NCBI GenBank assembly: GCA_012838705.1
Contig: DUOT01000109.1
Location: 8,578 to 72,577, forward strand
Length of the DNA: 64,000 nucleotides
Direction: 5' to 3'
From: Acholeplasmataceae bacterium
Lineage (GTDB): Bacteria > Bacillota_I > Bacilli_A > ML615J-28 > CAG-698
The notes beneath the pieces are model-generated. The model searched no databases. It had not been told where the DNA came from and saw nothing but the letters and a program-made list of their open reading frames with translations. A program made the position numbers and the translations under genes. Shown one piece after another: positions 10,781 to 47,121 of the stretch; the first letter of the stretch is position 1; every line of letters starts with the position of its first letter.

Positions 10781-11497
10781 ATGAGATTAGACAATTATCT
10801 TTCTAAGGCAATAAATGTTACGAGAAAAAAAGCACGTGAGTTAATAAAATCCGGAAAAGTTTCAGTTGAAGGGCATATTGTTTTAAAGCCTGATTATCAT
10901 ATTGATGAAAATGATGATAAAGTCTATTTTGAAAATAAACTTCTATCATATCGGAAATTTAAATATATTATGATAAATAAACCACAAGGAGTAGTTAGTG
11001 CTGTTACAGATCGAAAATATAAAACAATTGTTGATTTAGTAGGTGATGATACTTTATTTCCTGTTGGCAGACTTGATATTGATACTGAAGGCTTAATAAT
11101 TCTTACGAATAACGGAAGGCTATCTCATTTTCTTACTAGTCCAAAAAGTAACATTTGGAAAGGTTATTATTTTGAAGTAGCTAGTCCATTAACAGAAGAG
11201 AATGCTAATGCGCTTAAAAAAGGTGTTGAAATTCTAGATGGGAAAAACAAACCATTTATAACTAAACCTGCTAAGTTAAAATTAATTAGTGAAAATAAAG
11301 GGATTGTGGAGATTGTTGAAGGGAAGTTTCATCAAGTCAAAAGAATGTTTGAGAAAATAGGAAATAAAGTGATTTATTTAAAAAGAATTCATTTTGGTGG
11401 TTTATTCTTAGATGATAGTTTAAACTTAGGAGATTTTCGAGAATTAACAGATGACGAAGTAGAATATTTAAAAAAAATATGTAATTTTAAGGAGTAG
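10781..11497 (+). CDS. 16S rRNA pseudouridine synthase, RsuA/RluB family
   Basis: S4 domain (MRLDNYLSK...ARELIKSGKVSVEG) and the catalytic VGRLDIDTEGLIILTN motif. Confidence 0.85.
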   Translation: MRLDNYLSKAINVTRKKARELIKSGKVSVEGHIVLKPDYHIDENDDKVYFENKLLSYRKFKYIMINKPQGVVSAVTDRKYKTIVDLVGDDTLFPVGRLDIDTEGLIILTNNGRLSHFLTSPKSNIWKGYYFEVASPLTEENANALKKGVEILDGKNKPFITKPAKLKLISENKGIVEIVEGKFHQVKRMFEKIGNKVIYLKRIHFGGLFLDDSLNLGDFRELTDDEVEYLKKICNFKE

Positions 11498-11499
11498 AA

Positions 11500-11955
11500 A
11501 TGGCGATAGTATATATGATGATTGGGATACCGGGGTCAGGAAAATCAACTTATGCTTTATCCTTGAGTAAAGAAAAAGATATTCCAATTATATCTTCTGA
11601 TAAAGTAAGGGATATGCATCCTGATTGGGATGAAATTAAGATCTTTCCTGAAGTATATAGATTATGCGGAAAGTATTTAAAAGAAGAAAAAGATATTATT
11701 TTCGATGCAACAAATATTACTCCTAATGTTAGAGCAAGATTTGTAGAGAATGTAAAGAAATATGTAAGTGATTTTAAGATGCATGCAATAGTAATGATTG
11801 CAGATGTAAATACATGTGTTAGGCGTGTAAAGAAAAGAAATGAGGATAAAAATGAAAGATTTTTACCTCCGCATGTTGTTTATGTTTATAATGAAAAATT
11901 AATAATGCCTGATGAAAGTGAAGGGTTTATTGATATCAAAATCATAAATAATTGA
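11500..11955 (+). CDS. P-loop kinase, AAA_33/PNK-like
   Basis: Walker A GIPGSGKST and DATN (FDATNITP). Its start is coupled to the rsuA-like stop. Confidence 0.6.
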   Translation: MAIVYMMIGIPGSGKSTYALSLSKEKDIPIISSDKVRDMHPDWDEIKIFPEVYRLCGKYLKEEKDIIFDATNITPNVRARFVENVKKYVSDFKMHAIVMIADVNTCVRRVKKRNEDKNERFLPPHVVYVYNEKLIMPDESEGFIDIKIINN

Positions 11956-12002
11956 TTCACATATTTGCCCATATAGTAATAAATTATAATAGGAGGGATA
12001 AT

Positions 12003-12371
12003 ATGGAATCAAGAATGGACCGTTTTAGAGAATTTGCAAATAGACACCCCCTATTAAAAGATGAAGTTCGTAGTGGAAAAAGGACTTGGCAAAATATTTA
12101 CGAAGAATGGGTTTTATATGGAGAAAATGATTCCCAATGGAAACAATATGAAGTAAGTACAAATACGCAACCATCAAACGATCAAACTATGGACAGTATA
12201 AGGAATATCATTGGTTATATTCAGAAAATTAATCCCGATTCAATTACAAAAACATTAAATACAGTTCAAAAGGTTGTGCAAATAGTGCAAACATTAGGTG
12301 GCTCTTCAAGACGACCTATGCTACCAACCAATCAAATGATGCCAAGCATGTATAATGATTGGTGGGATTAA
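12003..12371 (+). CDS. ylbD: YlbD-like putative spore coat protein
   Basis: HPLLKDEVRSGKRTWQNIYEEWVLYGENDSQWKQY is collinear with B. subtilis YlbD. Start at MESRMDRF after RBS AGGAGGG. Confidence 0.45.
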   Translation: MESRMDRFREFANRHPLLKDEVRSGKRTWQNIYEEWVLYGENDSQWKQYEVSTNTQPSNDQTMDSIRNIIGYIQKINPDSITKTLNTVQKVVQIVQTLGGSSRRPMLPTNQMMPSMYNDWWD

Positions 12372-16865: not shown

Positions 16866-16975
16866 TGAAAATAATTAAATGTTGTGGTATAATAAGCAAG
16901 GTTAATACCAAATCACGATGTTCCGCTACTATTGTCATGATAGGTATGAACATTGGCAGAAGGAGCGTGAATTTA
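16866..16975 (+). promoter_or_regulatory. rplS promoter plus a 5' leader of about 80 nt (candidate L19 autoregulatory leader)
   Basis: TTGAAA, 16 bp spacer, TGgTATAAT. A structured leader follows, ending in RBS AGAAGGAG. The ORF-track protein [10 protein letters not shown].. across this region is non-coding. Confidence 0.4.
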
Positions 16976-17410: not shown

Positions 17411-18685
17411 GTGGGCAAATATCATTTAATCGGAATTAAAGGCACGGGAATGTCAGCTCTAGCTGTTAGTTTAAAACAGTTAGGACATGAAGTTTCCGGT
17501 AGTGATGTCGAAGAACACTTTTTCACAACCCCCATTCTAAATGAAAATAATATATTAGTAACTTCTTTTGATGAAAAAAATATTACCGCAAATAAAACAT
17601 ATATAATTAGCACGGCTTTTGATAATAAAAATATTGAAGTTAAGAAAGTATTTTTAAAAAATTATAAATATTATTATTATCACGAATTTTTAGAAAAGTT
17701 TTATAAAGGTATTAAAATTGGTGTTAGTGGAGTTCATGGAAAAACCACAACAGCAATGTTAATAGCTTCTTTATTTGCTGATCAAAATATAAGTGCTGTT
17801 ATTGGTGATGGTACTGGAATTGGAAATAAAAATTATAAATATTTTATATTTGAAGCATGTGAATATAAAAATCATTTCCATATATTTAATTATGATTATT
17901 TAGTTATTAATAATATTGATTATGATCATCCTGATTTTTTTAATAGTTTAGAGGATGTAAAAAGGTCTTTTCAAATTGCGAGTGATAAAACTAAAGTATT
18001 AGTAATTAATGGCGATGATGAAAATGCAAAAGATATAAAAAATAATAATAAATATACATTCGGAATGAATGAAGCAAATTTTACTTCGTGTAAAATAAAG
18101 AAACAAGTTGAAACAGGATATTTTTTAGATATTATAATTGATAATAAACCTTATAAGTTTTATCTACCTTTCCTAGGAAAACATATGATTTATAATTTTC
18201 TTGCAAGTATTACTATTTATTATTTAACTGGTGGAAAGATGGATAATTTACAAGATAAAATATTGAAACTTAAATTACCAAAACGAAGAATGGAAGAACT
18301 CTTTTATTATGATAATATTATTATCGATGATTATGCACATCATCCAACAGAAATAAAAGCATGTATTAATGCTGTTAAGGAAAAGTATCCAAATAAAAAA
18401 ATTGTAGTATTATTTGAACCCCATACATACACTAGAACATTAGCACTAGAAGAAGATTTCAAAAATAGTTTTCAAGGTGCAGACGAAGTATATATTGCTA
18501 AGACATTTACATCGAAAAGAGAAAAGCATAATCCCTCATTAGAAAAGAAAGTTCGTGAGATTTTTGGGAATGCGAAAAGATTTCATTTAGGACTTTTATC
18601 AAGTTTAAAAAAATATCAAGGCAGCGTAATTATATTTATGGGGGCAGGAAATATTAGAAAATACATTTCAAAATTAATATCTTAA
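17411..18685 (+). CDS. murC: UDP-N-acetylmuramate--L-alanine ligase
   Basis: GTG start. KYHLIGIKGTGMSALA, and GVHGKTTT (GxxGKT P-loop). Confidence 0.9.
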   Translation: MGKYHLIGIKGTGMSALAVSLKQLGHEVSGSDVEEHFFTTPILNENNILVTSFDEKNITANKTYIISTAFDNKNIEVKKVFLKNYKYYYYHEFLEKFYKGIKIGVSGVHGKTTTAMLIASLFADQNISAVIGDGTGIGNKNYKYFIFEACEYKNHFHIFNYDYLVINNIDYDHPDFFNSLEDVKRSFQIASDKTKVLVINGDDENAKDIKNNNKYTFGMNEANFTSCKIKKQVETGYFLDIIIDNKPYKFYLPFLGKHMIYNFLASITIYYLTGGKMDNLQDKILKLKLPKRRMEELFYYDNIIIDDYAHHPTEIKACINAVKEKYPNKKIVVLFEPHTYTRTLALEEDFKNSFQGADEVYIAKTFTSKREKHNPSLEKKVREIFGNAKRFHLGLLSSLKKYQGSVIIFMGAGNIRKYISKLIS

Positions 18686-18780: not shown

Positions 18781-19764
18781 ATGAATCAACCAAAAATTTA
18801 TGATATTGCTGGTGCAGCAGGTGTTAGCCTTGCAACAGTATCAAGGGTTTTAAATCATCCGGAAAAAGTAAAGAAATCAACTCGTGAAAAAGTTTTACGA
18901 ATTATAAAAGAAAAAGGTTATAAACCTAATGCCAATGCTAGAGGATTAGCTAGTCGTAGATCAACTACAGTCGCGATTGTAGTTCCGACTGTTTTACGAG
19001 CATCGATTTCAGAAATGATTCAAGGAATTGTTGATAGTGCTAAAAATTTTGGCTATTCAATAAGACTTTTTGTTAATGATGAGGATGAGGATCAAGTTGA
19101 AACTTGGAGAGAAGTAATAGCTTCAAGCGTTGATGGAATTCTTTTCATGAGTGATGAAATGGATGATGAGACTTACGAGCTAATTGAAAATACTCCAGTG
19201 CCAGTTATTTTTGTTAATGCTATTTCAAAAAATTCTAATTATGGTAGTGTGAGTATTGACAATGAAGGCTGTGCATATAGAATTACTAAAGAAATGATTG
19301 ACCGCGGTAATAAAAATATATTATTCATTGGTACTGAACATAATTATGCTATTAATAACTTAAAAGAAATTGGTTATCGCAAAGCTATGGAAGAGGCAGG
19401 ACTTATTCCTAATACTATTAAATCTTCTGGTGATATAAGTAAAAATGAAGTTCAGTTTAATGAATACTTAGATAATAATCGACCTGAAGTTGTGCTTTCT
19501 GCTCGTGATTCAATTGCGATTTCATTTATGAATGTTGCAACCAAACGAGGAATTAAAGTACCAGACGAGATGCAAGTTATCGGTTTTCAAAACACAAGAT
19601 ATGCTGAACTATCAAATCCAAAACTAACTTGTGTTGAGACTCCTATTTATGAAATCGGTAATAAAGCAATGGCAAACCTGACACAGCTAATGAAAAATGA
19701 AGATGTAGAACCTGAAAATACATTTATTGATTATCAAGTTATATGGCGTGAATCAACTAAATAA
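18781..19764 (+). CDS. ccpA: LacI-family regulator, likely catabolite control protein A
   Basis: HTH IYDIAGAAGVSLATVSRVLN. Collinear with CcpA (RGLASRRSTTVAIVVP...). Lies next to tyrS, as ccpA does in B. subtilis. Confidence 0.5.
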   Translation: MNQPKIYDIAGAAGVSLATVSRVLNHPEKVKKSTREKVLRIIKEKGYKPNANARGLASRRSTTVAIVVPTVLRASISEMIQGIVDSAKNFGYSIRLFVNDEDEDQVETWREVIASSVDGILFMSDEMDDETYELIENTPVPVIFVNAISKNSNYGSVSIDNEGCAYRITKEMIDRGNKNILFIGTEHNYAINNLKEIGYRKAMEEAGLIPNTIKSSGDISKNEVQFNEYLDNNRPEVVLSARDSIAISFMNVATKRGIKVPDEMQVIGFQNTRYAELSNPKLTCVETPIYEIGNKAMANLTQLMKNEDVEPENTFIDYQVIWRESTK

Positions 19765-19789
19765 AAACGATGATTAAACCGAAGTATAA

Positions 19790-19955
19790 ATCTAATATGT
19801 AAAGTATAGAGAGATAGTGGTTGGTGAAAACTATCACATATGGATTTAGAATTACAGTTTAGGAGTTTTGTTATTATTAAAGTGCACATTTTATAAATGT
19901 GAACTAAGGTGGTACCGCTGGAAAAATTCTAGTCCTTAGATTTAAGGACTTTTTA
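19790..19955 (+). promoter_or_regulatory. T-box riboswitch leader of tyrS
   Basis: AGAGA / AGTGG stem-I elements; candidate Tyr specifier UACA near 19853; T-box AAGGTGGTACCGC (19906-19918); terminator AGTCCTTA..AAGGACT followed by TTTT. Confidence 0.8.
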
Positions 19956-25618: not shown

Positions 25619-27889
25619 ATGAATAACAATCAAAATTTTTGGAGCAAAATTTGGTCATCAATAAAGGATTTATTTGTTCGTCTTTTTGGAATTGGAAAAT
25701 CAAAAGATAGAGCAACTTCTGTTCTTGAAGAAGAAGAAATAGTAAGCCCCTCAAAACAAATATTTAGAAATTTTATTCGCAATAAAGTTGCAATAATAGG
25801 TCTTACAATCTTTGTTGCTATCGTATTATTTGTTGTTATTGGTAGAGCTGTTATTGACTTTGATCATCGATATACTGAGAGTTCACAAATCTATATCGAG
25901 CCCGGAACAGATCACTTAAAAATACCAAAAGGTTTAAAAAAATCTGGTATTAAGGTTGTAAAGGATTTTGAAGGCAATGACCAATATCTAATGGGTGTTG
26001 GAAATGCTTTTACTATTGCAATTTCTAATGATAATAAAATATATGTTTGGGGAGCTAATGAAGAAAAAATTAAAAAAGTTCCTAAAGAAATTCAAGAAAA
26101 TGCAGATAAAATAGTACAACTTGCAGTTGGTGCAGACCATGCAGTTGTTCTAACGAGTGATGGAAAGCTTCTTGCTTGGGGTTCTAATGGTCAACAACAA
26201 GCACAGATTCCAACATTTAATATGGATACAGACGATTTCTATGGTTTATATAAAAAATCTATTGAAGCATATTTTAAACCAGAAGTTCGTTATTTGTATC
26301 CAGATGATTTAATTACAACAATTGAAGAAGATCCAATAAAAAAAGTTGTAGCTGGATATCAATATACAAGTATTCTCACTGAGAGTGGAATCATTTATTC
26401 TTGGGGAAATACTAAAGAAGTACGTATTTCTGAAGAACGCTATTCTTATCGTTTTACGGAAATAGAAATAAAATATGATGGAGAAAAATTGACTTGGAAA
26501 TATATTGGTCCAAATATTACATTTAATATTGCTACTAACGAAGAAATAATAGATTATTATAATCTTCCAACTGAAGAAGACCGTGAAATTGAATTAACAT
26601 ATTCAAAAAATGCTTTATCTTGGCGTTATGATGATGAAGAAGAATGGACTACTCTAGCAACAAAAGAAGATATTCTTGAATATATTAAACCAAATATTAA
26701 AAAGGTTACTAATATTTATGCTTTAGAGTCCCATATGGTTTACGAGTTTGAAGATAATAGTATTTTCATTATGGGTCAAGCTGGATCTATTATGTCTCAA
26801 CTTACTGAAGACTTACGAGTAGAATTATTCAAAAGTGCTGAAGAACGTGGTTATCGTGTTGAAAAAGTTGTTGGAACTGAACGTAATGCGTTTGTATTAA
26901 CATCTGAAGGAAATATCTTTGGTTGGGGTGAATCAACAACTGAAGCATTGCCGTTAATTACTATTCCAGATGAAGTTAAAAATAGTAAAATTGTTGATCT
27001 TGTAAGTGGAAAATATCATTTAGTAGCTAGAGATGATAAGGGTAATGTATATACTTGGGGAAGTAAAAATTCATTAAATCAATTAGACATTCCAAAGAAG
27101 CTTGCAAAATCAGAAAAGATTATATCTAATTATTTTATAAATTATTCAATAGGTGAAGATGGCTCTATCCAAGCATGGGGTCATAAAGGATATATATTCG
27201 GTACCGATTTAGCTGGTGCTGACGTGTTTAAACGTATTATAGCTGGTGGTGCTATGTCATTATCATTAGCACTAGTTGCAGTTGTTGTATCATTAATCAT
27301 TGGATTAATTATTGGTTTAGTAGCTGGATTCTATGGTAAATGGGTAGACAATTTATTAATGAGATTTGGTGAAATTATCTCCGCATTCCCATTCTTACCG
27401 TTGGCGATGACTCTTGCTAAGATTGTACAAGAGGCAGAAATAGATGAAACATATCGTGTATATATGATAATGGTTGTCCTAGGATTACTTTCATGGCCAG
27501 GTCTTGCACGTTTAGTACGCGGTCAAATTCTAAAAGAACGCGAACAAGATTTCGTATTAGCAGCTAAAGCATTAGGTATAAAAGAAAAACATATTATTAC
27601 TCGTCATATTTTACCTAATGTCATTAATGTTGTTATTGTTAGTACAACATTAAGTTATGCTGGTGCATTATTAACTGAATCTGGATTATCATTCCTTGGA
27701 TTTGGCGTAAGATATCCAAAACCATCTTGGGGTAATATGTTAACAGGAACACAAAGCATGACCGTATTAAGATATTATTGGTGGGCATGGATTATTCCTG
27801 CAATCTTCATAATTTTAACTGCCCTAAGTGTTAACTTGGTAGGTGATGGTTTACGTGAGGCAATGGATCCAAAGGCGAATGAAAGATAG
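25619..27889 (+). CDS. oppC: Oligopeptide ABC permease OppC with an extracytoplasmic RCC1-like beta-propeller of about 470 aa inserted after TM1
   Basis: OppC N-terminus and TM1, then seven repeats ending in xWGxN/xWGS (VWGAN, AWGSNGQQQ, YSWGNTKE, FGWGESTTE, YTWGSKNSLNQ, QAWGHKGY), then a canonical OppC TM domain. Confidence 0.8.
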   Translation: MNNNQNFWSKIWSSIKDLFVRLFGIGKSKDRATSVLEEEEIVSPSKQIFRNFIRNKVAIIGLTIFVAIVLFVVIGRAVIDFDHRYTESSQIYIEPGTDHLKIPKGLKKSGIKVVKDFEGNDQYLMGVGNAFTIAISNDNKIYVWGANEEKIKKVPKEIQENADKIVQLAVGADHAVVLTSDGKLLAWGSNGQQQAQIPTFNMDTDDFYGLYKKSIEAYFKPEVRYLYPDDLITTIEEDPIKKVVAGYQYTSILTESGIIYSWGNTKEVRISEERYSYRFTEIEIKYDGEKLTWKYIGPNITFNIATNEEIIDYYNLPTEEDREIELTYSKNALSWRYDDEEEWTTLATKEDILEYIKPNIKKVTNIYALESHMVYEFEDNSIFIMGQAGSIMSQLTEDLRVELFKSAEERGYRVEKVVGTERNAFVLTSEGNIFGWGESTTEALPLITIPDEVKNSKIVDLVSGKYHLVARDDKGNVYTWGSKNSLNQLDIPKKLAKSEKIISNYFINYSIGEDGSIQAWGHKGYIFGTDLAGADVFKRIIAGGAMSLSLALVAVVVSLIIGLIIGLVAGFYGKWVDNLLMRFGEIISAFPFLPLAMTLAKIVQEAEIDETYRVYMIMVVLGLLSWPGLARLVRGQILKEREQDFVLAAKALGIKEKHIITRHILPNVINVVIVSTTLSYAGALLTESGLSFLGFGVRYPKPSWGNMLTGTQSMTVLRYYWWAWIIPAIFIILTALSVNLVGDGLREAMDPKANER

Positions 27890-31075: not shown

Positions 31076-31531
31076 ATGATTACTTTATATACATCTCCTA
31101 GTTGTCTTTCATGTCGTAAAGTAAAAAAGTATTTTGATAAATATAATATCAAATATATTGAAAAGAATATTATGCATACACGTTTAACACGTGATGATAT
31201 TTTCAATATGCTTGTTAATAGCGAAAATGGATTTGAAGATATTATTTCTCCACGTTCAAAAGTCTTTAAAGAAGCAAATGTGGATTTTAATAGTATGACA
31301 ATACATGAACTTGTTGACTTTATCGTCGACAATCCAACGATATTGAAACGTCCAATCATCGTTACCGAAACAGATCTTCAAGTGGGTTATAATGATGATG
31401 ATATTACATTATTTTTACCACCTGAAATACGTAATCGTGAATGTAGTTTCTGTTTAGGACCTCATGAAAATTGTGATTATGTAAAAGCATTAAAAGTAGA
31501 TAATGAATCTAGTAAAGAGGCTGTTGAGTGA
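31076..31531 (+). CDS. spx: Spx-family (ArsC-fold) global regulator with a Cys-rich C-terminal extension
   Basis: MITLYTSPSCLSCRK (CxxC), RPIIV and LQVGYNDDDI. About 20 extra C-terminal residues: RNRECSFCLGPHENCDY. Confidence 0.8.
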   Translation: MITLYTSPSCLSCRKVKKYFDKYNIKYIEKNIMHTRLTRDDIFNMLVNSENGFEDIISPRSKVFKEANVDFNSMTIHELVDFIVDNPTILKRPIIVTETDLQVGYNDDDITLFLPPEIRNRECSFCLGPHENCDYVKALKVDNESSKEAVE

Positions 31532-31607: not shown

Positions 31608-33386
31608 ATGAAGTTTATAAAAAGATTATTACTTGTTGTACTCTTTATTTTCTCACTTAATATATTAGTGGGTTGCAACAATAATAAAATAGACACTCTA
31701 TTAGTTGGCGTACATGAAATCGAAGAAAATTTTTTAGTAAATGCTAATAATTATGTAAGTGATTTAGTACATGGTTATAGTACATTAGTAAAAACAGAAA
31801 ATGGTGAATATGTTTGGGATACAAATATCGTATTAACTAAAGCCCCAGAAGTAAAATTTGATGATGATGGCAACAAAACATACCATTTTACACTCCGTAA
31901 AAATCTAGAATGGAATAATGGAAGTAAAATTACAGCTAAAGATTATGTTGCAAGTATTCTCCTATTTTCTTCATCAGAATGGAATACTTTATCACCATCT
32001 AATGTTGGATCTAAGCTTTTAGGATATAATGAATATCGAAAAGGAATAAAATCAAAAAATAACTATACGTCGATACACGAAATTTTTAGAGGAGTAAGAT
32101 TAACAGATGACTATACATTTTCCTTAACAATAGATAAGAAATATATCCCTAATTTTTATGAATCAGCTTTTGTTGCAGCAAAGCCAATATATCTTGAATC
32201 TTTTCTTCCTGGATTTGATATTAAAGATGATGGTGAAGGGGCATATTTGAAATCAAGTGATTCATTAAATGTATTAGAGCTTCTACAAATCAATGTTTTT
32301 AGTGAAAATGGTGAAAAACTAAATCCAAAGGTTACTTGTGGACCATATAATTTTATTAGTTTTGATAAAAATAATATTTTTCTTGAAGTAAATCCTCATT
32401 ACCAAGGTAATTATGAAAAGAAAAAACCGAAGATAGAAATAATCGAAATTAAAGAAATAACACCATTAACTGATGTCGAACAAGTGATTGCTGGCTCTGT
32501 TGATTTAGTTATAGGAATAAATGATCCCAATAAAATAAAGATTGCGAAAGAAACAACTAATGTAGGATTATGCAATTACTTAGAAAATGGATTTAGATTT
32601 ATTGGAATTGCTAATGATAAAGAACCAACTTCATATCCAGAAGTAAGAAGAGCAATTGCTTATTTAATAGATCGTAATAAATTATTAACTTATGAAGCAT
32701 CAGGTTACGGTGCAATAATTAATGCACCATATTCTAAAGATGATTGGTATTATTTAGAATCTAAAAATGAGTTAGAAAGTAAACTTGCAACTTATTCTCA
32801 AAGTATTAACAGTGCAAATATAGAATTAAATATGAGCCCTTATAAATATGAAGAGGATGGTGAAACTTTATATAACCCTGAAAAGGCTGCTAATGATTAT
32901 TTTCGTCATGATGCCGATGGAAACATATTAGAAATCACACAATGCATTAAAACAAAAAACATGTTATCTCTCGATTTAAGTTTACATGCTTGGAAAGTTG
33001 GAATAAAGTTTCAATATGATGAAGTGGAAAGTGAAGAATTTATTGAAAGAATAAATGAAAAACATTATCATCTTTATGAGCTTTCAATAAGCTTTGATGA
33101 CTTTGATCCATATTTATATTGGCATAGTGATGTTGTGGATACTGATTTAATGGCAGTAAGTGATATGATTATTGATGAAATGGTTCTGAAAATGCATAGG
33201 GCGCAAAGTAAAGAAGATTTTGTAGAAGCATTTATTAATTTCTCAACAAGATGGAATCGAATATTACCATGTATTCCTTTATATTCTTCAGAATATTATG
33301 ATGTATATAATAAAAAGGTTAAAGGATTAAAGACAAATGCTCATTGGACTTGGGCAAATGATATTTGTGATATTTACATAGATTAA
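31608..33386 (+). CDS. Second oligopeptide-type substrate-binding lipoprotein, an orphan OppA paralog
   Basis: Lipobox LVGC. Collinear with the first SBP (VTCGPY, VEQVIAG, ...WTWANDICD C-terminus). Confidence 0.8.
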   Translation: MKFIKRLLLVVLFIFSLNILVGCNNNKIDTLLVGVHEIEENFLVNANNYVSDLVHGYSTLVKTENGEYVWDTNIVLTKAPEVKFDDDGNKTYHFTLRKNLEWNNGSKITAKDYVASILLFSSSEWNTLSPSNVGSKLLGYNEYRKGIKSKNNYTSIHEIFRGVRLTDDYTFSLTIDKKYIPNFYESAFVAAKPIYLESFLPGFDIKDDGEGAYLKSSDSLNVLELLQINVFSENGEKLNPKVTCGPYNFISFDKNNIFLEVNPHYQGNYEKKKPKIEIIEIKEITPLTDVEQVIAGSVDLVIGINDPNKIKIAKETTNVGLCNYLENGFRFIGIANDKEPTSYPEVRRAIAYLIDRNKLLTYEASGYGAIINAPYSKDDWYYLESKNELESKLATYSQSINSANIELNMSPYKYEEDGETLYNPEKAANDYFRHDADGNILEITQCIKTKNMLSLDLSLHAWKVGIKFQYDEVESEEFIERINEKHYHLYELSISFDDFDPYLYWHSDVVDTDLMAVSDMIIDEMVLKMHRAQSKEDFVEAFINFSTRWNRILPCIPLYSSEYYDVYNKKVKGLKTNAHWTWANDICDIYID

Positions 33387-33415
33387 AAAAAGATTGCACT
33401 AACGCAATCTTTTTA
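33385..33415. terminator. Bidirectional terminator
   Basis: AGATTGC-actaac-GCAATCT flanked by an A-run and a T-run. Confidence 0.55.
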
Positions 33416-33995
33416 ATATTGAATAAGCCCTTTTAATTTTTTTATCAGCTTTTGTGTATTTAATATTAAGTTCACTAATTATTTCTACAAACTCTTTTTT
33501 ACCTTGATAATATGATTGTGCGATATATTCAATTTCGTGATCAAAATATCCAGAATAAGTTTTGCCATCTATATAAAAAGTGTAGTCACTTTTATCGATA
33601 AAAAGAATACCATTTTTATAAGGCAAATACATTCGTTTGGTTGCTAAACTTAGAAAGCGAAATACTCTTTGCCCATTAATTAGAGGTGATAGTGCATTTT
33701 GAATTTCCGGAAATGGAATTGCACCTGTTTCAATCATGTCTTCAAATTGTTCTTGACTTAATGGAAATGTGTTAACGTTGATAGAATAGCCTTTTTTCCT
33801 TTTTAATGTTATTTCTAAGTTATCGCGTTCTCTTACTCTAAGAGATGTACTATATCCTTTTAGTGAAAAACGAGGTGTATCAAAGTAATGATTAGTTTGG
33901 AAATCGAATTTGCTCCCCTTAAATTGATTTATTAATCTGTCATACTCAGCTTCAGTAATTAAACTTTTAAAACCAACTTCGGTGCCTTTTTGCAT
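33399..33995 (-). CDS. CYTH-domain protein (YjbK-like triphosphate tunnel metalloenzyme)
   Basis: N-terminal TEVGFKSLITEAEY (ExExK pattern). Sits next to relQ-ppnK as yjbK does in B. subtilis. Confidence 0.65.
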   Translation of the reverse strand: MQKGTEVGFKSLITEAEYDRLINQFKGSKFDFQTNHYFDTPRFSLKGYSTSLRVRERDNLEITLKRKKGYSINVNTFPLSQEQFEDMIETGAIPFPEIQNALSPLINGQRVFRFLSLATKRMYLPYKNGILFIDKSDYTFYIDGKTYSGYFDHEIEYIAQSYYQGKKEFVEIISELNIKYTKADKKIKRAYSILKRLR

Positions 33996-34165
33996 TCTAT
34001 CTCTCCTTCTATTTGATTTATATTATATTATACAATATAAAAAGTAAATTGCAATACTATTTTCGTCAAATTTTTCATTTATATTATAAGAATCTTTGAA
34101 AAAGACTTAAAAAAATCTTAAAAATATGATAAAATAATAATGGTGTTGCATAGGAGGCAAGATAT

Positions 34166-34852
34166 ATGATTAGTGAAGAAATGTTAATTGATGATTTTAA
34201 TTGGGATGTTTTCCTTCAGCCTTATGAACTAGCAATTAATGAATTTATTATTAAACTTGAATCAATGAAAAAACAATATATACTAAAAAAAGCAAAAAAT
34301 CCAATTGAATCAATTACAGGAAGGATTAAAACTCCTTCTAGTATAATAGAAAAGGCAAAACGTTTAAATGTTAGTTTTTCAGATATTCCTGAAGCAATAC
34401 AAGATATTGGTGGTATTCGAATTACATGTAAATATGTAGAAGATGTATATGAAATATATAATTTATTGCAAGCTCGAAAAGATATTAAAATTGCATATGT
34501 CAAGGATTATATTAAAAATCCTAAACCTTCAGGATATCGTTCACTACATATTATTGCAAAGCATGATGTTGAAACAATAGATGGGTTAAAACAAATATAT
34601 ATCGAATTTCAAATTAGAACACTAGCGATGCATTTATGGGCTACAATTGAGCATTCGTTAAAATATAAATATTTTCAAAATATTCCAGAACAAATAAAAG
34701 CAAAATTACAAGATGCAGCTGCGATAACTATGGATCTTGATGAAAAGATTTCTAAAATCCATCATGAAGTTGAAACTTTAAATGATACTCATTCACGCCA
34801 TGAATATGAACTAGAATGGGAAGAACATATGATAAAGCGAGGAAGTATATGA
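34166..34852 (+). CDS. relQ: Small alarmone synthetase (GTP pyrophosphokinase, RelQ/SAS1-like)
   Basis: RelA/SpoT synthetase domain: GRIKTPSSIIEK, DIGGIRITC, SGYRSLHII. Linked to ppnK as yjbM is in Bacillus. Confidence 0.85.
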   Translation: MISEEMLIDDFNWDVFLQPYELAINEFIIKLESMKKQYILKKAKNPIESITGRIKTPSSIIEKAKRLNVSFSDIPEAIQDIGGIRITCKYVEDVYEIYNLLQARKDIKIAYVKDYIKNPKPSGYRSLHIIAKHDVETIDGLKQIYIEFQIRTLAMHLWATIEHSLKYKYFQNIPEQIKAKLQDAAAITMDLDEKISKIHHEVETLNDTHSRHEYELEWEEHMIKRGSI

Positions 34853-35613
34853 TTTATGGACTATTTGGTGAACATGAATTTACAAAGGAAGTTAATGAAA
34901 TATTAGAAAAGCGTGGACATATTCGTGATGATGAAAATCCTGAATTTGTTTTTTCCATTGGTGGCGACGGAACAATATTAAAAGCAATTAAGAAATATCA
35001 AAAACAAGTTGAAAATATTAAGTTTATTGGAATAAATCTTGGAAAACTCGGCTTTTATACAAGTTTTGAAAAGAAAGAATTAGAAGACGCAATTACTTTA
35101 GTTGAATCTGGTCAATATGAACTTGCTAAGTATAATCTTTTAGAATATTTATTAAAATCTAAGAATTTATATAAAAGTGGATTTGGGTTAAACGAAATTG
35201 CAATTATTAATCCAGTTCATACGCAAATTATTGATGTATATATTAATGATAAGCATTTTGAAACATTTAGGGGAACAGGTTTTCTAGCTTCAACTCCAAC
35301 TGGTTCAACTGCTTATAATAAATCTTTAGGTGGAAGTGTCATTGACCCAAATATTTGTGCTTTACAATTAACTGAAATAGCATCAATTAATAATCGTGTC
35401 TATAAAACTTTGGGTTCTCCTTTAGTTTTATCACAAAAGACATTGATTAAACTTAAGTCTGATTTTAGAAATACATATATTACTGTTGATGGTATGTATG
35501 AACATTTTAATAATATCGATGAAATAATTATTCGTTTATCAACAAGAACAGCTCAATTTATTGTTAAGCATGAAACGGATTTTTGGGATCGAGTTAAAAG
35601 AAGTTTTTTATAG
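34849..35613 (+). CDS. ppnK: NAD kinase
   Basis: GGDGTIL motif. ATGA start/stop overlap with relQ. Confidence 0.9.
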   Translation: MIYGLFGEHEFTKEVNEILEKRGHIRDDENPEFVFSIGGDGTILKAIKKYQKQVENIKFIGINLGKLGFYTSFEKKELEDAITLVESGQYELAKYNLLEYLLKSKNLYKSGFGLNEIAIINPVHTQIIDVYINDKHFETFRGTGFLASTPTGSTAYNKSLGGSVIDPNICALQLTEIASINNRVYKTLGSPLVLSQKTLIKLKSDFRNTYITVDGMYEHFNNIDEIIIRLSTRTAQFIVKHETDFWDRVKRSFL

Positions 35614-35627
35614 TGAGGAGTGAAATA

Positions 35628-36149
35628 ATGCCATATATTAAACCAGTATATGTTGCCTATGATGGCGCAAATGATTTAGAACATTACAAAGAAATGCAAG
35701 AATGGACCCAAAGTGATGGTTCAAAATTTAATTTTTATGATGGATTAGATTTATCTAAAAAAATTGATAAATTACCAGATGAAGAAGTAAAAAAATTAAT
35801 ATCAGAGCGAATTGATCAATCGGAAGTATTTGTATTATTGATAACAAAATTTACAAAAAGATATCGTAAATTTATCCGTTGGCAAGTTGAAGCTGCAATG
35901 AATTTACAAAAACCAATAATTGTTTTAAATATTAATAAAATTCGTTCAGTTGATTATGACCGTGTTCCGATGGTATTTAAACGAAAAAATTTATCTTTAC
36001 ATATAACATTCCAAGCACCAATTTTAGAATTTGCCCTTGAAAATTGGCCTAAGAGTCATTATGAACATTTAGAAAAGGAAGAAATTAAAACATATCGATA
36101 TACTGTAGATGTATATGAAAGCTTAAATTTATTTACAAGTGATAATTAA
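35628..36149 (+). CDS. TIR-like / nucleoside-2-deoxyribosyltransferase-like flavodoxin-fold domain protein (DUF1863/ThsB-like pattern)
   Basis: RBS GAGGAG 14 nt after the ppnK stop. N-terminal beta-strand plus acidic patch KPVYVAYDGANDL. RYRKFIRWQVEAAMNLQKPIIVL resembles ThsB RRWVRYEIMKS..KIIGI and NDT WEIGYAYALGKPVIGL, with the Glu conserved. Confidence 0.35.
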   Translation: MPYIKPVYVAYDGANDLEHYKEMQEWTQSDGSKFNFYDGLDLSKKIDKLPDEEVKKLISERIDQSEVFVLLITKFTKRYRKFIRWQVEAAMNLQKPIIVLNINKIRSVDYDRVPMVFKRKNLSLHITFQAPILEFALENWPKSHYEHLEKEEIKTYRYTVDVYESLNLFTSDN

Positions 36150-36177
36150 AAGGCTAGAAAATTTCTAGCCTTTATTA
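36148..36177. terminator. Bidirectional terminator between the relQ operon and clpP
   Basis: AGGCTAGAAA/TTTCTAGCCT with flanking A and T runs. Confidence 0.55.
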
Positions 36178-36759
36178 TTTTTGCTTAACCATTATTTCAT
36201 CCACAATGCCATATTCTTTAGCTTCTTCCGCAAACATATAATTGTCTCTTTCAGTATCAAGTGTTATAGTTTCAATTGATTTTCCAGTTTTTTCAGCTAA
36301 AATTTTATTGATACGTTCACGGATTCTAATAATATGTTTTGCTGCAATTTGAATTTCAGTAGCTTGACCTTGAGCTCCACCTAATGGTTGATGAATTAAT
36401 ACTTCACTATTAGGTAAGGCATATCGTCTTCCTTTTTCACCACTTGCGAGGATGAAAGCAGCCATTGAAGCAGCAAGTCCAAGACAAATAGTACATACTG
36501 GTGGTGAAATTAAATTCATTGTATCATAAATTGCCATTCCAGCAGTTACAGATCCACCAGGTGAGTTAATATATAAATATATTTCTTTCTCAGGGTCTTC
36601 TGCAGCAAGAAATAAAAGTTGTGCTACGACACTATTTGCTAGGGAATCATTAATTTCCCCGCAAAGCATTACGATTCGATCTTTTAATAATCGTGAATAA
36701 ATATCGTATGATCTTTCTCCACGAGAAGTTTGTTCAATAACAATCGGTGTATAATACAT
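36175..36759 (-). CDS. clpP: ATP-dependent Clp protease proteolytic subunit
   Basis: [29 protein letters not shown].., Ser-His-Asp triad context, 194 aa. Confidence 0.95.
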
Positions 36760-36810: not shown

Positions 36811-36898
36811 CTAATAAAAATGTTAGATTTTGTATTATGACATTAACACATTCTTTTTTTTAATCATATCGTATAATGATAGTAAAGGAGGTGTGGCT

Positions 36899-37222
36899 AT
36901 GAACTTTTCCCCATTTACTCCACCATTCGTAACAAACTTACCAGCAACAGTAACAACTTTACCACCAATTATTACTCGTAGTATGAATGTTGTGCATCGC
37001 TATAATATCATTAATCAACCGCATATACATGAACATTTAACACAAGTATGTACTCATAATATTAAACGTCATTTCTGCTGTCAAAGACCATTGTGTCAAG
37101 AGCATTGTACATTCAAAGAAGAATTTTGTGGGTGCCCAGGTCCAATGGGGCCAGGATCATGTGGTCGTCCGCTTGCGGATGTAGATTTTGATAACTTTGA
37201 TGATGTACCTATGTTTCAATAA
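36899..37222 (+). CDS. His/Cys-rich protein, CotD-like spore coat protein candidate
   Basis: Start MNFSPF after RBS AAAGGAGGTG. HRYNIINQPHIHEHLTQVCTHNIKRHFCCQ...CGCPGP resembles the CotD family. CATATCGTA (36865-73) upstream fits the sigma-K -10 CATAnnnTA. Confidence 0.4.
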   Translation: MNFSPFTPPFVTNLPATVTTLPPIITRSMNVVHRYNIINQPHIHEHLTQVCTHNIKRHFCCQRPLCQEHCTFKEEFCGCPGPMGPGSCGRPLADVDFDNFDDVPMFQ

Positions 37223-37322: not shown

Positions 37323-37567
37323 TTGAATATAAAATACCTTCGTGATATAATAATATTAAATCGATGAGAAAGAAGTAGTAGTATTGCTTACTTATTCAAG
37401 AGAGGAAAACATTGGTGGAAGTTTTCTATAAGGACAATATGAATTCATCTTTCGAGAGGTTCTAATCAAACCCGCTTAAGTAGCGTTAAAAACTTGCGAG
37501 GGCATCGAAAGATGAACTAAGGTGGTACCGCGAAATATTCGTCCTTAGATTTTCTAAGGATTTTTTT
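37323..37567 (+). promoter_or_regulatory. pheST promoter and T-box riboswitch leader
   Basis: TTGAAT, 17 bp spacer, TATAAT (37323-51). T-box AAGGTGGTACCGCG (37519-32). Terminator TCCTTAG..CTAAGGA followed by T7. UUC codons occur in the stem-I region. Confidence 0.8.
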
Positions 37568-45433: not shown

Positions 45434-45763
45434 GTGATTTTAATGACAGATGATAATGGTCCATTATTGTTTATAAAATCTGTTAGCACCGAGGCAAAAG
45501 CACATAATCAAACTATTTTTGATAGTAGAAAACATATTATCAATAGTAAATTATCTGCTCGAGAGTATAATAAATTACTTAGAATAATAGAAATGTATAA
45601 GAAGAATCGACCGGTTTTGTGTAAGGTAGTTACTAAAAATCGTGTTGTGGAAGCAATCCCTTACCAATTAGATGACCGAATCTTATTATTGAAGACCCAA
45701 GATGGAAAGACAGAAAAACTTGATTCTTACTTAATTGAAAGTATTGAAATCATTAGTTTTTAG
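45434..45763 (+). CDS. Hypothetical protein, YolD-like pattern
   Basis: 109 aa. C-terminal pattern (REYNKLLRII..VVEAIPYQLDDRILLLKTQDG...IESIEII) resembles YolD-like proteins. Confidence 0.3.
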   Translation: MILMTDDNGPLLFIKSVSTEAKAHNQTIFDSRKHIINSKLSAREYNKLLRIIEMYKKNRPVLCKVVTKNRVVEAIPYQLDDRILLLKTQDGKTEKLDSYLIESIEIISF

Positions 45764-46185
45764 AATTCACAAACATCTTTTTCTTTAATACCTAATTTTA
45801 CAGGTTTGAAGCATTGAATACCACAAATGCAATCAACTTTAAGGATCGCTGTTAATTTTGTTGGTTTTAAGCATCCACCATCACGATCTAATAGTCTTAA
45901 TAATACGCAGCCATCTTTAATATCTTCAACGCGGAACACATTTGTTGTTTCGCTGAATACATCTAAGAATGCTGTGAATTTTGCATCGTTAGCAAGTGTT
46001 AGCATTACAGGACGTGTATCAAATGCTTTCATGATTAGCGGACCAGTACAGCCTACACAATCGTCATCAATAAAAGCTTCCTTTTGAATTTGGTCAATCT
46101 TCTTTAAAACTCGTAGAATACAATCAGTATCACGATGTTTATCATATCTGTTATCGTAATAATTATTTACTCTTTCACATGACAT
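45760..46185 (-). CDS. CotZ/CotY-family spore coat protein
   Basis: Cys-rich. VFRVEDIKDGCVLLRLLDRDGGC parallels CotZ FFRVERVHGSCATLSLL. The minus-strand upstream region has CATATATTA, a sigma-K -10-like element. Confidence 0.55.
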   Translation of the reverse strand: MSCERVNNYYDNRYDKHRDTDCILRVLKKIDQIQKEAFIDDDCVGCTGPLIMKAFDTRPVMLTLANDAKFTAFLDVFSETTNVFRVEDIKDGCVLLRLLDRDGGCLKPTKLTAILKVDCICGIQCFKPVKLGIKEKDVCEF

Positions 46186-46290: not shown

Positions 46291-47121
46291 TTATTTAATT
46301 AAAGCGAGATAAAATAATACAGCTAACGATACAGTAAGGCAATAATAGCCGAAGTATCGCAAGTTGTTTTTTTGTACTAGTTTAAAAAAGTATTTAATAG
46401 CATAGTAAGTACCAAAAATACTTACAACGAATGCTCCGAGGTATCCGGGAATATAAGTAGTACTAGCATCAAAGTCAAGTAAACCTAATAGTAGCGAGGC
46501 AAGGCTAATAGGTATATACATCATAAAAGAAAATCTTAAGGCTGCATTTAAATCGGTTTTATTTAATACCCCTATGCTTGTCGTTGATCCGGAGCGAGAT
46601 ATTCCTGGAAAAAGTCCTATGATTTGAGCAAGTCCCATAAGGATACTAGTTTTTAAAGTGATTTTTTTATAATGAGCATTTTTTGCTTGATTGTGGATAA
46701 ACAAAAGTAATAATCCAGTTATAAATAAGCATATTCCAACTGATAATAAAGAAGAGAAAGTATTATCAATCACATCTTTTAGAAGTAACCCGGCAATACC
46801 TGCTGGTATTGTTGCAACTATAACTAATAAGCAGTATAAAAAATCATCTTTCTTTTCTTTGTCTTTTTGAAAAATAAATCTAAATGCTCCACCTATTATA
46901 TCTTTTAAGAAAAGACGATAATAGAAGATGATTGCTAGTAGTGAACCAAAATTTACAAAAATATCAAAATTGATATCTCCTTCAAGATGAAGTCCAAATA
47001 TAGATTTGAATATTTGGAGGTGGCCACTTGATGATATTGGTAATGGTTCTGTAATTCCTTGGATGAGTCCTAGTAAAATATATTTTATAAAATTATTTAT
47101 TTCAAGAAACACTAATATCAC
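46291..47121 (-). CDS. uppP: Undecaprenyl-diphosphatase
   Basis: GITEPLPISSSGHL and an eight-TM BacA pattern. Confidence 0.9.
   Translation of the reverse strand: MILVFLEINNFIKYILLGLIQGITEPLPISSSGHLQIFKSIFGLHLEGDINFDIFVNFGSLLAIIFYYRLFLKDIIGGAFRFIFQKDKEKKDDFLYCLLVIVATIPAGIAGLLLKDVIDNTFSSLLSVGICLFITGLLLLFIHNQAKNAHYKKITLKTSILMGLAQIIGLFPGISRSGSTTSIGVLNKTDLNAALRFSFMMYIPISLASLLLGLLDFDASTTYIPGYLGAFVVSIFGTYYAIKYFFKLVQKNNLRYFGYYCLTVSLAVLFYLALIK

Follow-up and report, generated by a model that had tools for sequence, protein, structure and literature searches.

Organization of the relQ-nadK-TIR Operon

The DNA analyzed in this study is a single stretch of 64 kb (the window), the whole of which consists of housekeeping genes. 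Upstream of the operon under study, and divergent from it, is a CYTH-domain gene similar to yjbK (33399–33995, minus strand; Pfam PF01928, E = 2.4e-18), which is found upstream in all NadK-TIR loci seen (synteny in the related loci L001–L012, L015–L022, and L028). The intergenic region (33996–34165, plus strand) contains promoter-like sites for the operon, TTGAAA-18-AAAAAT at 34096–34125 and TTAAAA-17-TAAAAT with an upstream TG at 34107–34135; both are candidates from a consensus scan only, and a match of this kind is no evidence of function. The first gene, relQ (34166–34852, plus strand), encodes a YjbM-like small alarmone synthetase that matches Pfam RelA_SpoT (E = 3e-32) and scores 235.8 bits against NCBIfam NF053588, under the cut-off of 320 for that family. 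It is followed by nadK, also designated ppnK (34849–35613, plus strand), for an NAD kinase that is recognized by NCBIfam NF003424 (259.7 bits against a cut-off of 220) and by the Pfam domains NAD_kinase and NAD_kinase_C. The ATGA at 34849–34852 is common to the relQ stop and the nadK start, and relatives have the same 4-nt overlap. With its coupled reading frames, and with relatives that are arranged alike, the pair belongs to the relQ-nadK (yjbM-yjbN type) operons of Bacilli.

The last gene of the operon (35628–36149, plus strand) encodes a ThsB-like TIR protein of 173 residues that is of the subfamily-9 (EcThsB2) type and has Gln at the catalytic position. Its ATG at 35628, a start that is backed by homologues, lies 14 nt past the nadK stop and 7 nt downstream from the Shine-Dalgarno sequence GAGGAG (35615–35620, plus strand), and the nadK-TIR junction is unstructured (z = +0.8). 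A bidirectional intrinsic terminator (36149–36173, both strands) is common to the operon and the convergent clpP gene; the hairpin has an 11-bp stem and U-rich tails on both sides, with folding energies of −15.4 and −14.3 kcal/mol and z values of −4.7 and −4.9 for the two strands. The clpP gene (36175–36759, minus strand), assigned from its ORF and the synteny of ClpP in relatives, is outside the unit, and other genes take its place in L012, L022, and L028. The RluB-like gene of the window is located elsewhere, at 10781–11497. An earlier, sequence-only reading of this DNA had described an operon with the ATGA overlap, the 14-nt gap with its ribosome binding site, and the bidirectional terminator, all of which are present in the sequence, and its inclusion of the TIR ORF in the operon is supported.

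Family and Fold of the TIR Protein

The sequence-only reading had proposed a ThsB/DUF1863 TIR-like fold that resembles nucleoside deoxyribosyltransferases (NDTs) and had suggested three Pfam profiles as checks. PF08937 matches residues 8–104 with 49.4 bits against a cut-off of 21.2 (E = 6.3e-13), PF13676 (TIR_2) reaches only 13.2 bits against a cut-off of 28 (E = 0.13), and PF05014 (nucleoside deoxyribosyltransferase) gave no match at E ≤ 1 in a Pfam scan of the TIR protein. The PADLOC ThsB1 profile PDLC00429 matches the full length of the protein (E = 2.6e-46). The predicted structure (pLDDT 95) has a TIR-like flavodoxin fold, for which the closest solved relative is EcThsB2 (Protein Data Bank code 8V6T). 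The proposed fold holds. It is common to the TIR protein and the NDT/DNPH1 group, a likeness at the superfamily level only, and identification as an NDT or salvage enzyme proper was rejected on this ground and because PF05014 does not match.

The codon TAT at 35649–35651 (plus strand) encodes Y8, which is the equivalent in the HMMER alignment of the active-site Tyr Y8 of EcThsB2. Among the 63 members of the clade to which the window protein belongs, this position is Tyr in 51 and Phe in 11. The C-terminal tail segment with Y158 and Y163 (36099–36116, plus strand) aligns with Y159 and Y164 of EcThsB2 in 8V6T, and the two residues are 90 and 100% conserved, respectively, in the clade. In the predicted model the tail includes a strand (residues 155–157) and a helix (residues 160–165), both with high pLDDT, and, as a two-Tyr segment of ~20 residues, it would fold back on the TIR domain like the tail of EcThsB2 (PMC11204291). 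Domain fusions that might hint at a partner were not found in the family: the ten longer members carry PF08937 alone or nothing.

Residue at the Catalytic Position

The active-site residues of EcThsB2 are Y8 and E89, the latter equated with the Glu of NDT and DNPH1 (PMC11204291). In BcThsB the catalytic residue is E85, and the E85Q substitution abolishes both NAD consumption and production of the cADPR isomer (PMC10022894). HMMER alignments place the sequences H-E-I-D of EcThsB2 and Y-E-I-M of BcThsB opposite W85-Q86-V-E88 of the window protein (motif R-W-Q-V-E). By these alignments, Q86 (codon CAA, 35883–35885, plus strand) occupies the catalytic position beside Y8, and E88 (codon GAA, 35889–35891, plus strand) does not; the equivalent of E88 is Met in BcThsB, Asp in EcThsB2, and Asn in the structure 3HYN. 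Because the catalytic Glu of both characterized proteins aligns with Q86, the window protein appears to carry a natural form of the standard inactivating E-to-Q change and to lack the catalytic glutamate of the ThsB family. Likewise, of the Glu nucleophile and the N-terminal Tyr to which it is bonded in NDT and DNPH1, the window protein has only the Tyr, as Y8; Gln stands in place of the Glu in a mapping to NDTs that is indirect, via E89 of EcThsB2. The sequence-only reading had taken the Glu of WQVE as catalytic, had suggested that the protein uses it to cleave N-glycosidic bonds, and had proposed an E-to-A mutant at this site. E88 is indeed a conserved residue, yet the catalytic Glu does not align with it; the enzymatic assignment is not supported with Gln at the aligned position, and the mutation would be directed at the wrong residue.

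The residue at position 86 separates the family according to context. It is Gln in 63/63 members of the clade but Glu in 7/7 relatives that adjoin a macro-domain ThsA and in 97/112 other family members. Family members outside the clade that also bear Gln are P0073, P0087, P0088, P0106, P0125, P0129, P0130, P0139, P0144, P0172, and P0174. At the nucleotide level, the codon is CAA or CAG in all 25 loci with a housekeeping context (24 fetched loci and the window) and GAA or GAG in all six macro-adjacent loci. Position 88 is Glu in 61/63 clade members.

Genomic Context and Evolution of the Gln Clade

The Gln clade (n = 63) is split from the Thoeris-linked ThsBs with 100% neighbor-joining bootstrap support (500 replicates), and all members with a visible context are in housekeeping operons. 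The metagenome scan for relatives was made with a 9-sequence alignment. The arrangement [RelQ]-NadK-TIR is found in ~12 distinct lineages with TIR identities of 45–76%. In addition to the assembly of the window, the TIR gene is present in the metagenome-assembled genomes GCA_041670865.1, GCA_964516425.1, GCA_031553555.1, DATCKF01, and JAEYQM01. In these relatives the nadK and TIR genes are separated by a gap of 6–23 nt or joined by a 4-nt overlap, and each related locus with such a gap has a GGAG-type ribosome binding site in it. The pair is kept with a different downstream gene in L012, L022, and L028. Two lineages, L022 and L028, keep it without relQ, and the conserved core pair is therefore NadK-TIR and not RelQ-TIR. 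The sequence-only reading had named recurrence of the ppnK/relQ linkage among homologues as its own test. The linkage does recur, NadK-TIR being kept in the ~12 lineages; RelQ as the conserved partner was rejected. NAD kinase is itself not a universal partner because a sister group in the same clade has the arrangement Gmk-TIR-PduL(-like) without nadK and one further member lies between htpG and a TPR gene. Gmk and NAPRTase are the neighbors in the sister group.

The TIR protein co-diverges with its neighbors. Mantel correlations of TIR pairwise identity are 0.74 for NadK (p = 0.001), 0.70 for CYTH, and 0.80 for ClpP, which is the pattern of vertical inheritance. The gene is under purifying selection, with dN/dS of 0.17–0.38 as compared with 0.03–0.2 for the neighbors, values that are rough because dS is near saturation. 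The ORF is intact and full length in all clade members that were recovered whole (36–76% identity), and many positions are invariant. Residues in common with active ThsBs that are nearly invariant in the clade include D12, D16, K55, W85, N101, N103, R106, and D109. The clade also has fixed residues of its own (K48, D51, S78, R80, I105, V108, and K118) and a C-terminal extension of 4–5 residues. The GC content of the TIR gene matches that of its neighbors, and a recently acquired island was rejected by the GC profile, the synteny, and the Mantel tests. No TIR relatives were found in phage records or in IMG/VR viral contigs, and a phage origin was rejected on this basis.

Absence of a Thoeris Effector

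Outside the clade, the closest relatives are genuine ThsBs of type II Thoeris systems. Of the plasmid relatives inspected (28–40% identity), each of the five whose annotated TIR gene is intact adjoins a macro-domain gene; a sixth (H2) has only a degraded TIR fragment. At the locus studied here, neither a TM-macro nor a SIR2-SLOG ThsA is adjacent to the TIR gene, and the gene is not in a defense-island or mobile context with a patchy distribution but in a position after nadK that is conserved in ~12 lineages. A Pfam scan found no SIR2, SLOG, or Macro domain in 58/58 ORFs of the window. An HMM of the TM-macro ThsA, built from six proteins, had no hits at E ≤ 1, either in the window or in L001–L024, L027, and L028, a tblastn search with one ThsA found no nearby effector, and there is no ThsA within about 6 kb of the TIR gene in any clade locus. 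These searches covered the 64-kb window and the related loci. They agree with the sequence-only reading that no ThsA-like partner is nearby, and the possibility that the Thoeris system is intact, its effector encoded close by, was rejected.

Proposed Role of the TIR Protein

From the sequence, we judge it an even chance that the protein is a domesticated or exapted ThsB-type TIR, probably without NADase activity, that binds a nucleotide and serves as a partner or regulator linked to NAD kinase. An immune enzyme that has become a housekeeping nucleotide-binding protein is suggested by the Gln in place of the catalytic Glu, the absence of a nearby effector, and the vertical inheritance beside NAD kinase. 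The ancestor would have been the TIR sensor of a type II (TM-macro) Thoeris system whose ThsA effector was lost in a lineage of uncultured low-GC Bacilli. The TIR gene may then have settled as the last cistron of a core [relQ-]nadK operon, and the catalytic glutamate is fixed as glutamine, the same change as the laboratory mutation E85Q that abolishes NADase activity and signal synthesis in ThsB. The rest of the fold, including the active-site Tyr, the conserved Asp, Lys, Asn, and Arg positions, and the fold-back C-terminal tail, is kept. The present protein may have as its ligand a nucleotide of the NAD(P) type or one related to it, and NAD kinase, made from the same mRNA, would be the enzyme that it works with or acts upon. 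NADase activity has probably been lost, by homology to E-to-Q mutants of other TIRs. Because the rest of the fold is kept while the catalytic Glu is Gln, binding and not cleavage is the most likely mode of action; we infer that a ligand may still be bound and that NAD kinase may be the functional partner. A more specific proposal, which we put forward only tentatively, is that the catalytically dead ThsB has become a core metabolic regulator. It would respond to NAD(P)+ or to a similar nucleotide, perhaps one linked to the alarmones, and would govern NAD kinase or, in the sister lineage, enzymes of guanylate or NAD salvage.

The protein could still be an enzyme with altered chemistry, a TIR/NDT-like N-glycosidase or transferase that acts on NAD(P)+, deoxynucleotides, or an alarmone-related nucleotide and serves nucleotide salvage or pool control in the relQ-nadK operon, with E88, Y8, or another residue replacing the Glu. 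Nucleotide enzymes as neighbors (NadK and RelQ, and Gmk and NAPRTase in the sister group), the retention of the eight residues of active ThsBs listed above, and the conservation of Y8 and E88 are all compatible with this. However, 6/7 macro-linked relatives carry E88 together with the catalytic Glu, and the residue is Glu in 67/112 sequences outside the clade, indicating that E88 is ancestral and not compensatory. It is also two helix residues from position 86 and should face another way. An enzyme of this kind is unlikely, given also that the E-to-Q change at this position inactivates the TIR in which it was tested (BcThsB) and that there is no match to PF05014. Loss of the catalytic Glu would fit a protein with no small-molecule ligand that serves purely as a protein-protein scaffold or adaptor, in the manner of the animal adaptor TIRs. 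The positions in common with active ThsBs would be expected to drift in a protein that binds no ligand, but they are nearly invariant, and we give a pure scaffold very little credence.

A continuing role as an anti-phage sensor, in which a Thoeris-like TIR would have its effector elsewhere or would signal via RelQ or NAD kinase to arrest growth, is improbable. It would account for the type II Thoeris ThsBs as nearest relatives outside the clade, for the retention of the C-terminal tail, a putatively autoinhibitory feature of the sensor class, and for the somewhat faster evolution of the TIR than of its neighbors. On the other hand, the Glu needed for signal synthesis is missing in the entire clade, ThsA is absent from the window and from the surroundings of the clade loci, and relQ is dispensable for the linkage. 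The fixed core-genome position, the co-divergence with ClpP, NadK, and CYTH, and the unexceptional GC content also differ from the patchy occurrence of the relatives on islands and plasmids. A decaying, functionless remnant of a defense gene would be in keeping with the loss of the catalytic residue and the effector, but the intact ORFs, the dN/dS below 0.4, the conserved ribosome binding site and tight coupling, and the many invariant positions leave it hardly any probability; the conservation data effectively refute it.

In the current view, bacterial TIRs of the ThsB type are enzymes that phage infection triggers to synthesize immune signals derived from ADPR. NAD kinase is the sole enzyme that makes NADP. 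Here, a whole clade of the Tyr-containing subfamily is without the effector and the catalytic Glu, yet it is conserved under purifying selection and predicted to be cotranscribed with NAD kinase. Should the protein prove to be a regulator that binds a nucleotide, it would clearly exemplify the exaptation of a defense gene to housekeeping, would add a hitherto unknown level of control to NADP synthesis beside an alarmone synthetase, and would provide a natural substrate-trapping TIR for structural work. If the more specific proposal of a catalytically dead core regulator is true, the protein would be the first TIR pseudoenzyme with a housekeeping role in bacteria and a prokaryotic counterpart of the adaptor TIRs of animals, which are likewise non-catalytic. 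Systematic surveys seek TIRs in defense islands and discard stand-alone TIRs (10.64898/2025.12.03.692087). Profile-based defense finders, such as PADLOC with its ThsB1 profile, will label genes of this kind as ThsB components despite the missing catalytic residue and ThsA partner.

Comparison with Known Systems

EcThsB2, whose active site resembles that of the nucleoside deoxyribosyltransferases, is a TIR of type II Thoeris (PMC11204291). The window protein resembles it in the active-site Tyr, in the fold-back tail, and in size (about 170 residues) but has Q86 where EcThsB2 has the catalytic E89. The Tyr-containing ThsB subfamily 9, which includes EcThsB2, is found solely with TM-macro ThsA within the dataset of known Thoeris systems (Sci Adv 2024, PMC11204291), whereas the window clade is without ThsA, in nadK or gmk operons. 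Further differences from EcThsB2 are the fixed residues (K48 to K118) and the C-terminal extension that are peculiar to the clade. ThsB of Bacillus amyloliquefaciens Y2, from the same Tyr-containing class (PMC11204291), is a type II, phage-activated His-ADPR synthase that uses NAD+ as substrate and has a macro-domain effector (bioRxiv 10.1101/2024.01.03.573942). The class is a point of likeness, as is the tie to NAD metabolism that the NAD+ substrate gives the Y2 protein, but the chemistry of the Y2 protein requires the catalytic Glu that the window protein does not have. In BcThsB E85Q, an engineered, catalytically dead mutant of the Bacillus cereus protein (PMC10022894), the same Glu-to-Gln change was made that is natural in the window protein at the aligned position.

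Other comparisons are more distant. The nucleoside 2'-deoxyribosyltransferases and DNPH1 (PF05014) differ in the lack of a profile match, in the Gln at the position of the Glu nucleophile, and in that the window protein has no sign of deoxynucleoside chemistry. The animal adaptor TIRs (MyD88, TIRAP, and TRIF) are eukaryotic receptor adaptors with no specific sequence relationship to the window protein and no link to NAD kinase. In the literature we found nothing relevant on ThsB, TIR, or DUF1863 together with NAD kinase or RelQ and no paper that describes such a protein. In Bacillus subtilis the gene order is yjbK-yjbM(relQ)-yjbN(ppnK)-yjbO, with relQ and nadK coupled and yjbO encoding a pseudouridine synthase. 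The order of the CYTH, alarmone synthetase, and NAD kinase genes is thus the same as in the window, and the slot after nadK is occupied by the pseudouridine synthase gene in B. subtilis and by the TIR-like gene here.

Organization of the Operon

The operon comprises relQ (34166-34852; Pfam RelA_SpoT, E 3e-32), nadK (34849-35613; NCBIfam NF003424, 259.7 bits against a cut-off of 220) and the gene for a ThsB-like protein of 173 residues, designated TIR (35628-36149), in a region with a uniform GC content of ~27%. The arrangement given in the sequence-only reading is present throughout: relQ and nadK share an ATGA overlap (34849-34852), a gap of 14 nt with a ribosome-binding site, GAGGAG (35615-35620, 7 nt before the ATG), separates the nadK stop from the TIR start, and a bidirectional terminator precedes clpP. 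The ATG at 35628 is taken as the start because all homologues begin with M-[AP]-Y there, and the GTG at 35613, an ORF-finder entry, was rejected. No RNA structure was found at the nadK-TIR junction (z +0.8). Folding energies are -15.4 and -14.3 kcal/mol (z -4.7 and -4.9) for the two strands of the hairpin at 36149-36173, which is stable in both orientations; with U-rich tracts on either side, it therefore terminates both the TIR operon and the convergent clpP (36175-36759). Upstream lies a divergent CYTH gene (33399-33995, minus strand). An extra gene for an OppA-like solute-binding protein (31608-33386, plus strand) separates the CYTH gene from spx (31076-31531); relatives such as loci L001 and L005 have spx and the CYTH gene in direct succession.

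Other Features of the Window

The host, an uncultured bacterium of low GC content, belongs to the Bacilli. Its PheS is 100% identical to the database protein P0213, which carries the NCBI label "MAG TPA: Acholeplasmataceae bacterium"; the label on its relatives is "Bacilli bacterium." In a collection of 5.8 billion proteins, PheS has a 100% match but TIR has none, its best matches being 75% and 74% identical. Genes for the spore-coat-like YlbD_coat (11952-12371, plus) and CotZ (45760-46185, minus), a Mur ligase (17411-18685, plus) and UppP/BacA (46291-47121, minus) fit a walled, possibly sporulating host, which is odd with the Acholeplasmataceae label. T-boxes before pheS (37355-37549) and tyrS (19761-19940) and an L19 leader before rplS (16915-16956), all on the plus strand, are ordinary Bacilli features.

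Three further plus-strand ORFs stand out. An 810-residue ORF (59678-62110) encodes a GdpP-type c-di-AMP phosphodiesterase with its full domain set (PAS, GGDEF-like, DHH and DHHA1) together with both ribosomal protein L9 domains (residues 663-807), with no stop codon between the two parts; the corresponding B. subtilis genes, gdpP and rplI, are neighbouring but separate. An OppC-type permease (25619-27889) has a large RCC1/WD40-like repeat insertion between the N-terminal transmembrane segment and the permease domain, and the insertion is kept in related lineages (755-1072 residues; L001 129-2396, L005 1-2021). Between clpP and the pheS T-box, a Cys/His/Pro-rich ORF of 130 residues (36830-37222) has no Pfam match, and the same slot holds ORFs of 105-138 residues in L001, L009 and L010.

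Family, Fold and Catalytic Position of the TIR Protein

Sequence and structure both place TIR in the ThsB_TIR fold family. The protein passed the Pfam profile PF08937 (ThsB_TIR; 49.4 bits against 21.2), matched the PADLOC ThsB1 model PDLC00429 end to end (E 2.6e-46) and, with a profile from 66 homologues, matched PDB entry 8V6T over its full length (E 2.6e-31), other ThsBs scoring far lower. The fold proposed earlier, TIR-like or nucleoside-deoxyribosyltransferase (NDT)-like, is thus borne out by PF08937 and 8V6T but not by the other two Pfam profiles named with it: TIR_2 (PF13676) was not passed (13 bits against 28) and PF05014 gave no match, so that membership in the NDT family was rejected. 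Entry 8V6T is EcThsB2, a ThsB of a Thoeris system in Escherichia coli whose ThsA is of the TM-macro type (PMC11204291). The same paper defines a "subfamily 9," found in its dataset exclusively with TM-macro ThsA, in which the catalytic Glu and an active-site Tyr form a hydrogen bond, an arrangement shared with NDTs and DNPH1, and the C-terminal ~20 residues fold back onto the domain as a tail (PMC11204291). TIR has the fold of this subfamily. Tyr8 of TIR (codon 35649-35651) corresponds to Tyr8 of EcThsB2, and Tyr158 and Tyr163 in the tail to Tyr159 and Tyr164.

The catalytic site was mapped from profile alignments and published residue numbers. In the HMMER alignment, Glu89 of EcThsB2, the Glu of H-E-I-D as counted along the 8V6T sequence, lies opposite Gln86 of the W85-Q86-V87-E88 stretch, and Asp91 lies opposite Glu88. 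The same stretch is aligned with Y-E-I-M of BcThsB, in which the Glu is Glu85 after correction for the two-residue tag offset of 6LHY; Glu85 is catalytic, and E85Q abolishes NAD+ consumption, production of the cADPR isomer and stimulation of ThsA (PMC10022894). Two other ThsB structures, 9UV0 and 3HYN, have Glu at the Gln86 position and Asp or Asn at the Glu88 position. The Glu88 that the sequence-only reading took as the active-site residue is therefore displaced from that role, since the known catalytic Glu aligns with Gln86 (codon CAA, 35883-35885). From these alignments, TIR naturally bears the classical inactivating Glu-to-Gln change, and Glu88 is a separately conserved residue of the subfamily.

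Distribution of the Substitution and Genomic Contexts

Sixty-five full-length relatives of ~170 residues, with identities down to 36%, were recovered in homologue searches, and an exhaustive profile search gave 530 family representatives. Gln occupies the catalytic position in 63/63 members of the clade that holds the housekeeping-context proteins, encoded by CAA or CAG in all 25 housekeeping-context loci (24 fetched and the window), as compared with Glu in all seven Thoeris-linked proteins (GAA or GAG in 6/6 macro-adjacent loci) and in 97 of 112 other family members. In a neighbour-joining tree of 100 sequences, the 63 proteins form a clade with 100% support (500 bootstrap replicates) and all seven Thoeris-linked proteins fall outside. 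About 11 representatives beyond the clade also bear Gln (P0073, P0087, P0088, P0106, P0125, P0129, P0130, P0139, P0144, P0172 and P0174) and may represent independent losses of catalysis.

The order CYTH (minus), [RelQ], NadK, TIR recurs in ~12 distinct lineages (window, L001/L009, L005, L010, L011, L012, L015, L016, L017, L018/L020, L022 and L028) with TIR identities of 45-76%, and in all of these loci the NadK stop and TIR start are 6-23 nt apart with a GGAG-type ribosome-binding site or overlap by 4 nt. The pair survives altered surroundings, with an endonuclease gene in the place of clpP in L012 and relQ missing from L022 and L028, so that NadK-TIR, not RelQ-TIR, is the conserved core; of the linkage to ppnK and relQ suggested earlier, only the NadK part holds in all of these lineages. 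In the tree, the NadK-linked proteins do not emerge as a single monophyletic group (26% bootstrap). A sister group that is monophyletic in the same tree (100%) has the housekeeping order [NAPRTase]-Gmk-[GNAT]-TIR-PduL-like phosphotransacylase (L013, L023 and L027, TIR at 6001-6516 in each), with a 4-nt overlap of the TIR start and gmk stop in L023. In a third clade context, without nadK or gmk, the gene for P0035 (L024 6001-6522; 46% identity, Gln) lies between genes for HtpG (HSP90) and a large TPR protein. P0066, a database protein of 147 residues encoded on a 639-bp contig, has a ribosomal S8 domain (PF00410) fused to sequence matching the C-terminal half of a clade TIR (63% identity over 45% of the query), a combination that probably arose from faulty assembly or gene calling.

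More distant relatives have other neighbours. A ThsA_Macro gene follows the TIR gene of Epilithonimonas hungarica (L014, 36% identity). Of the plasmid-borne relatives inspected (28-40% identity), the five whose TIR gene is annotated and intact (Carnobacterium, Synechococcus, Enterococcus, Vibrio and Brucella) all adjoin a macro-domain gene, and several adjoin restriction-modification or toxin-antitoxin genes. In the sixth, Lactococcus pLLUC310B (L026), the stretch 3608-4474 inside a type I restriction-modification locus has an unannotated ThsB-like ORF and, of ThsA, only a degraded macro fragment (43 bits); this is apparently a type II Thoeris system in decay.

Proposed Role and Alternatives

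By analogy with the E-to-Q mutants, TIR would have lost NADase and signal-synthase activity. It would still bind a nucleotide-type ligand, because Asp12, Asp16, Lys55, Trp85, Asn101, Asn103, Arg106 and Asp109, common with active ThsBs, are near-invariant and the tail has retained its autoinhibitory architecture; TIR may act with or on NAD kinase, because one mRNA makes both in every NadK-linked lineage. Loss of catalysis would explain how TIR can be constitutively co-expressed with an essential gene and NAD+ not drained. We give even chances to this composite, an inactive, nucleotide-binding ThsB-type TIR working with or on NAD kinase. The clade has also gained basic or polar residues (Lys48, Ser78, Arg80 and Lys118), and we speculate that these could have come with a change of ligand, such as to one that, like NADP+, has an additional phosphate. 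The sister group, with its Gmk/NAPRTase context, points to sensing of NAD and guanine-nucleotide pools as the common theme, not to NAD kinase specifically. It is unlikely that TIR is instead an enzyme with altered chemistry, and a scaffold that binds no ligand, to be set beside the near-invariant residues shared with active ThsBs, is decidedly improbable.

Over 10-12 lineages, Mantel tests on pairwise identities show a correlation of TIR with NadK (r 0.74, p 0.001), CYTH (r 0.70) and ClpP (r 0.80); mean pairwise identities are 0.51 for TIR, 0.59 for NadK and 0.83 for ClpP, and dN/dS, a rough estimate with dS near saturation, is 0.17-0.38 for TIR and 0.03-0.2 for most neighbours. TIR is inherited vertically and is under purifying selection, and we regard a decaying relic as extremely improbable. 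A role in defence as a sensor, with the effector encoded at an unlinked site, is rather improbable. The phage genomes and viral contigs searched contained no relative of TIR, and the 64-kb window is all housekeeping (IF2, UvrC, RNase J, TrmD, TyrS, TrpS, Opp, Spx, PheST, IspH, EF-P, transketolase, GdpP, DnaB and others). As noted from the sequence at the outset, no ThsA-like partner is nearby: SIR2, SLOG and Macro domains are all missing from the window, and an HMM of the TM-macro ThsA built from six proteins had no match at E<=1 in the window or any clade locus.

Comparison with Known Systems

Three features tested for the functional definition of a Thoeris ThsB are absent from TIR: the catalytic Glu, a neighbouring ThsA and placement in a defence island. 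No paper connecting ThsB, TIR or DUF1863 with NAD kinase or RelQ came up in a literature search, and a recent systematic survey of TIR systems covered defence islands only and discarded stand-alone TIRs (10.64898/2025.12.03.692087). What is new here relative to the known Thoeris systems is a ThsB paralogue that has been exapted into a core operon with its catalytic site substituted.
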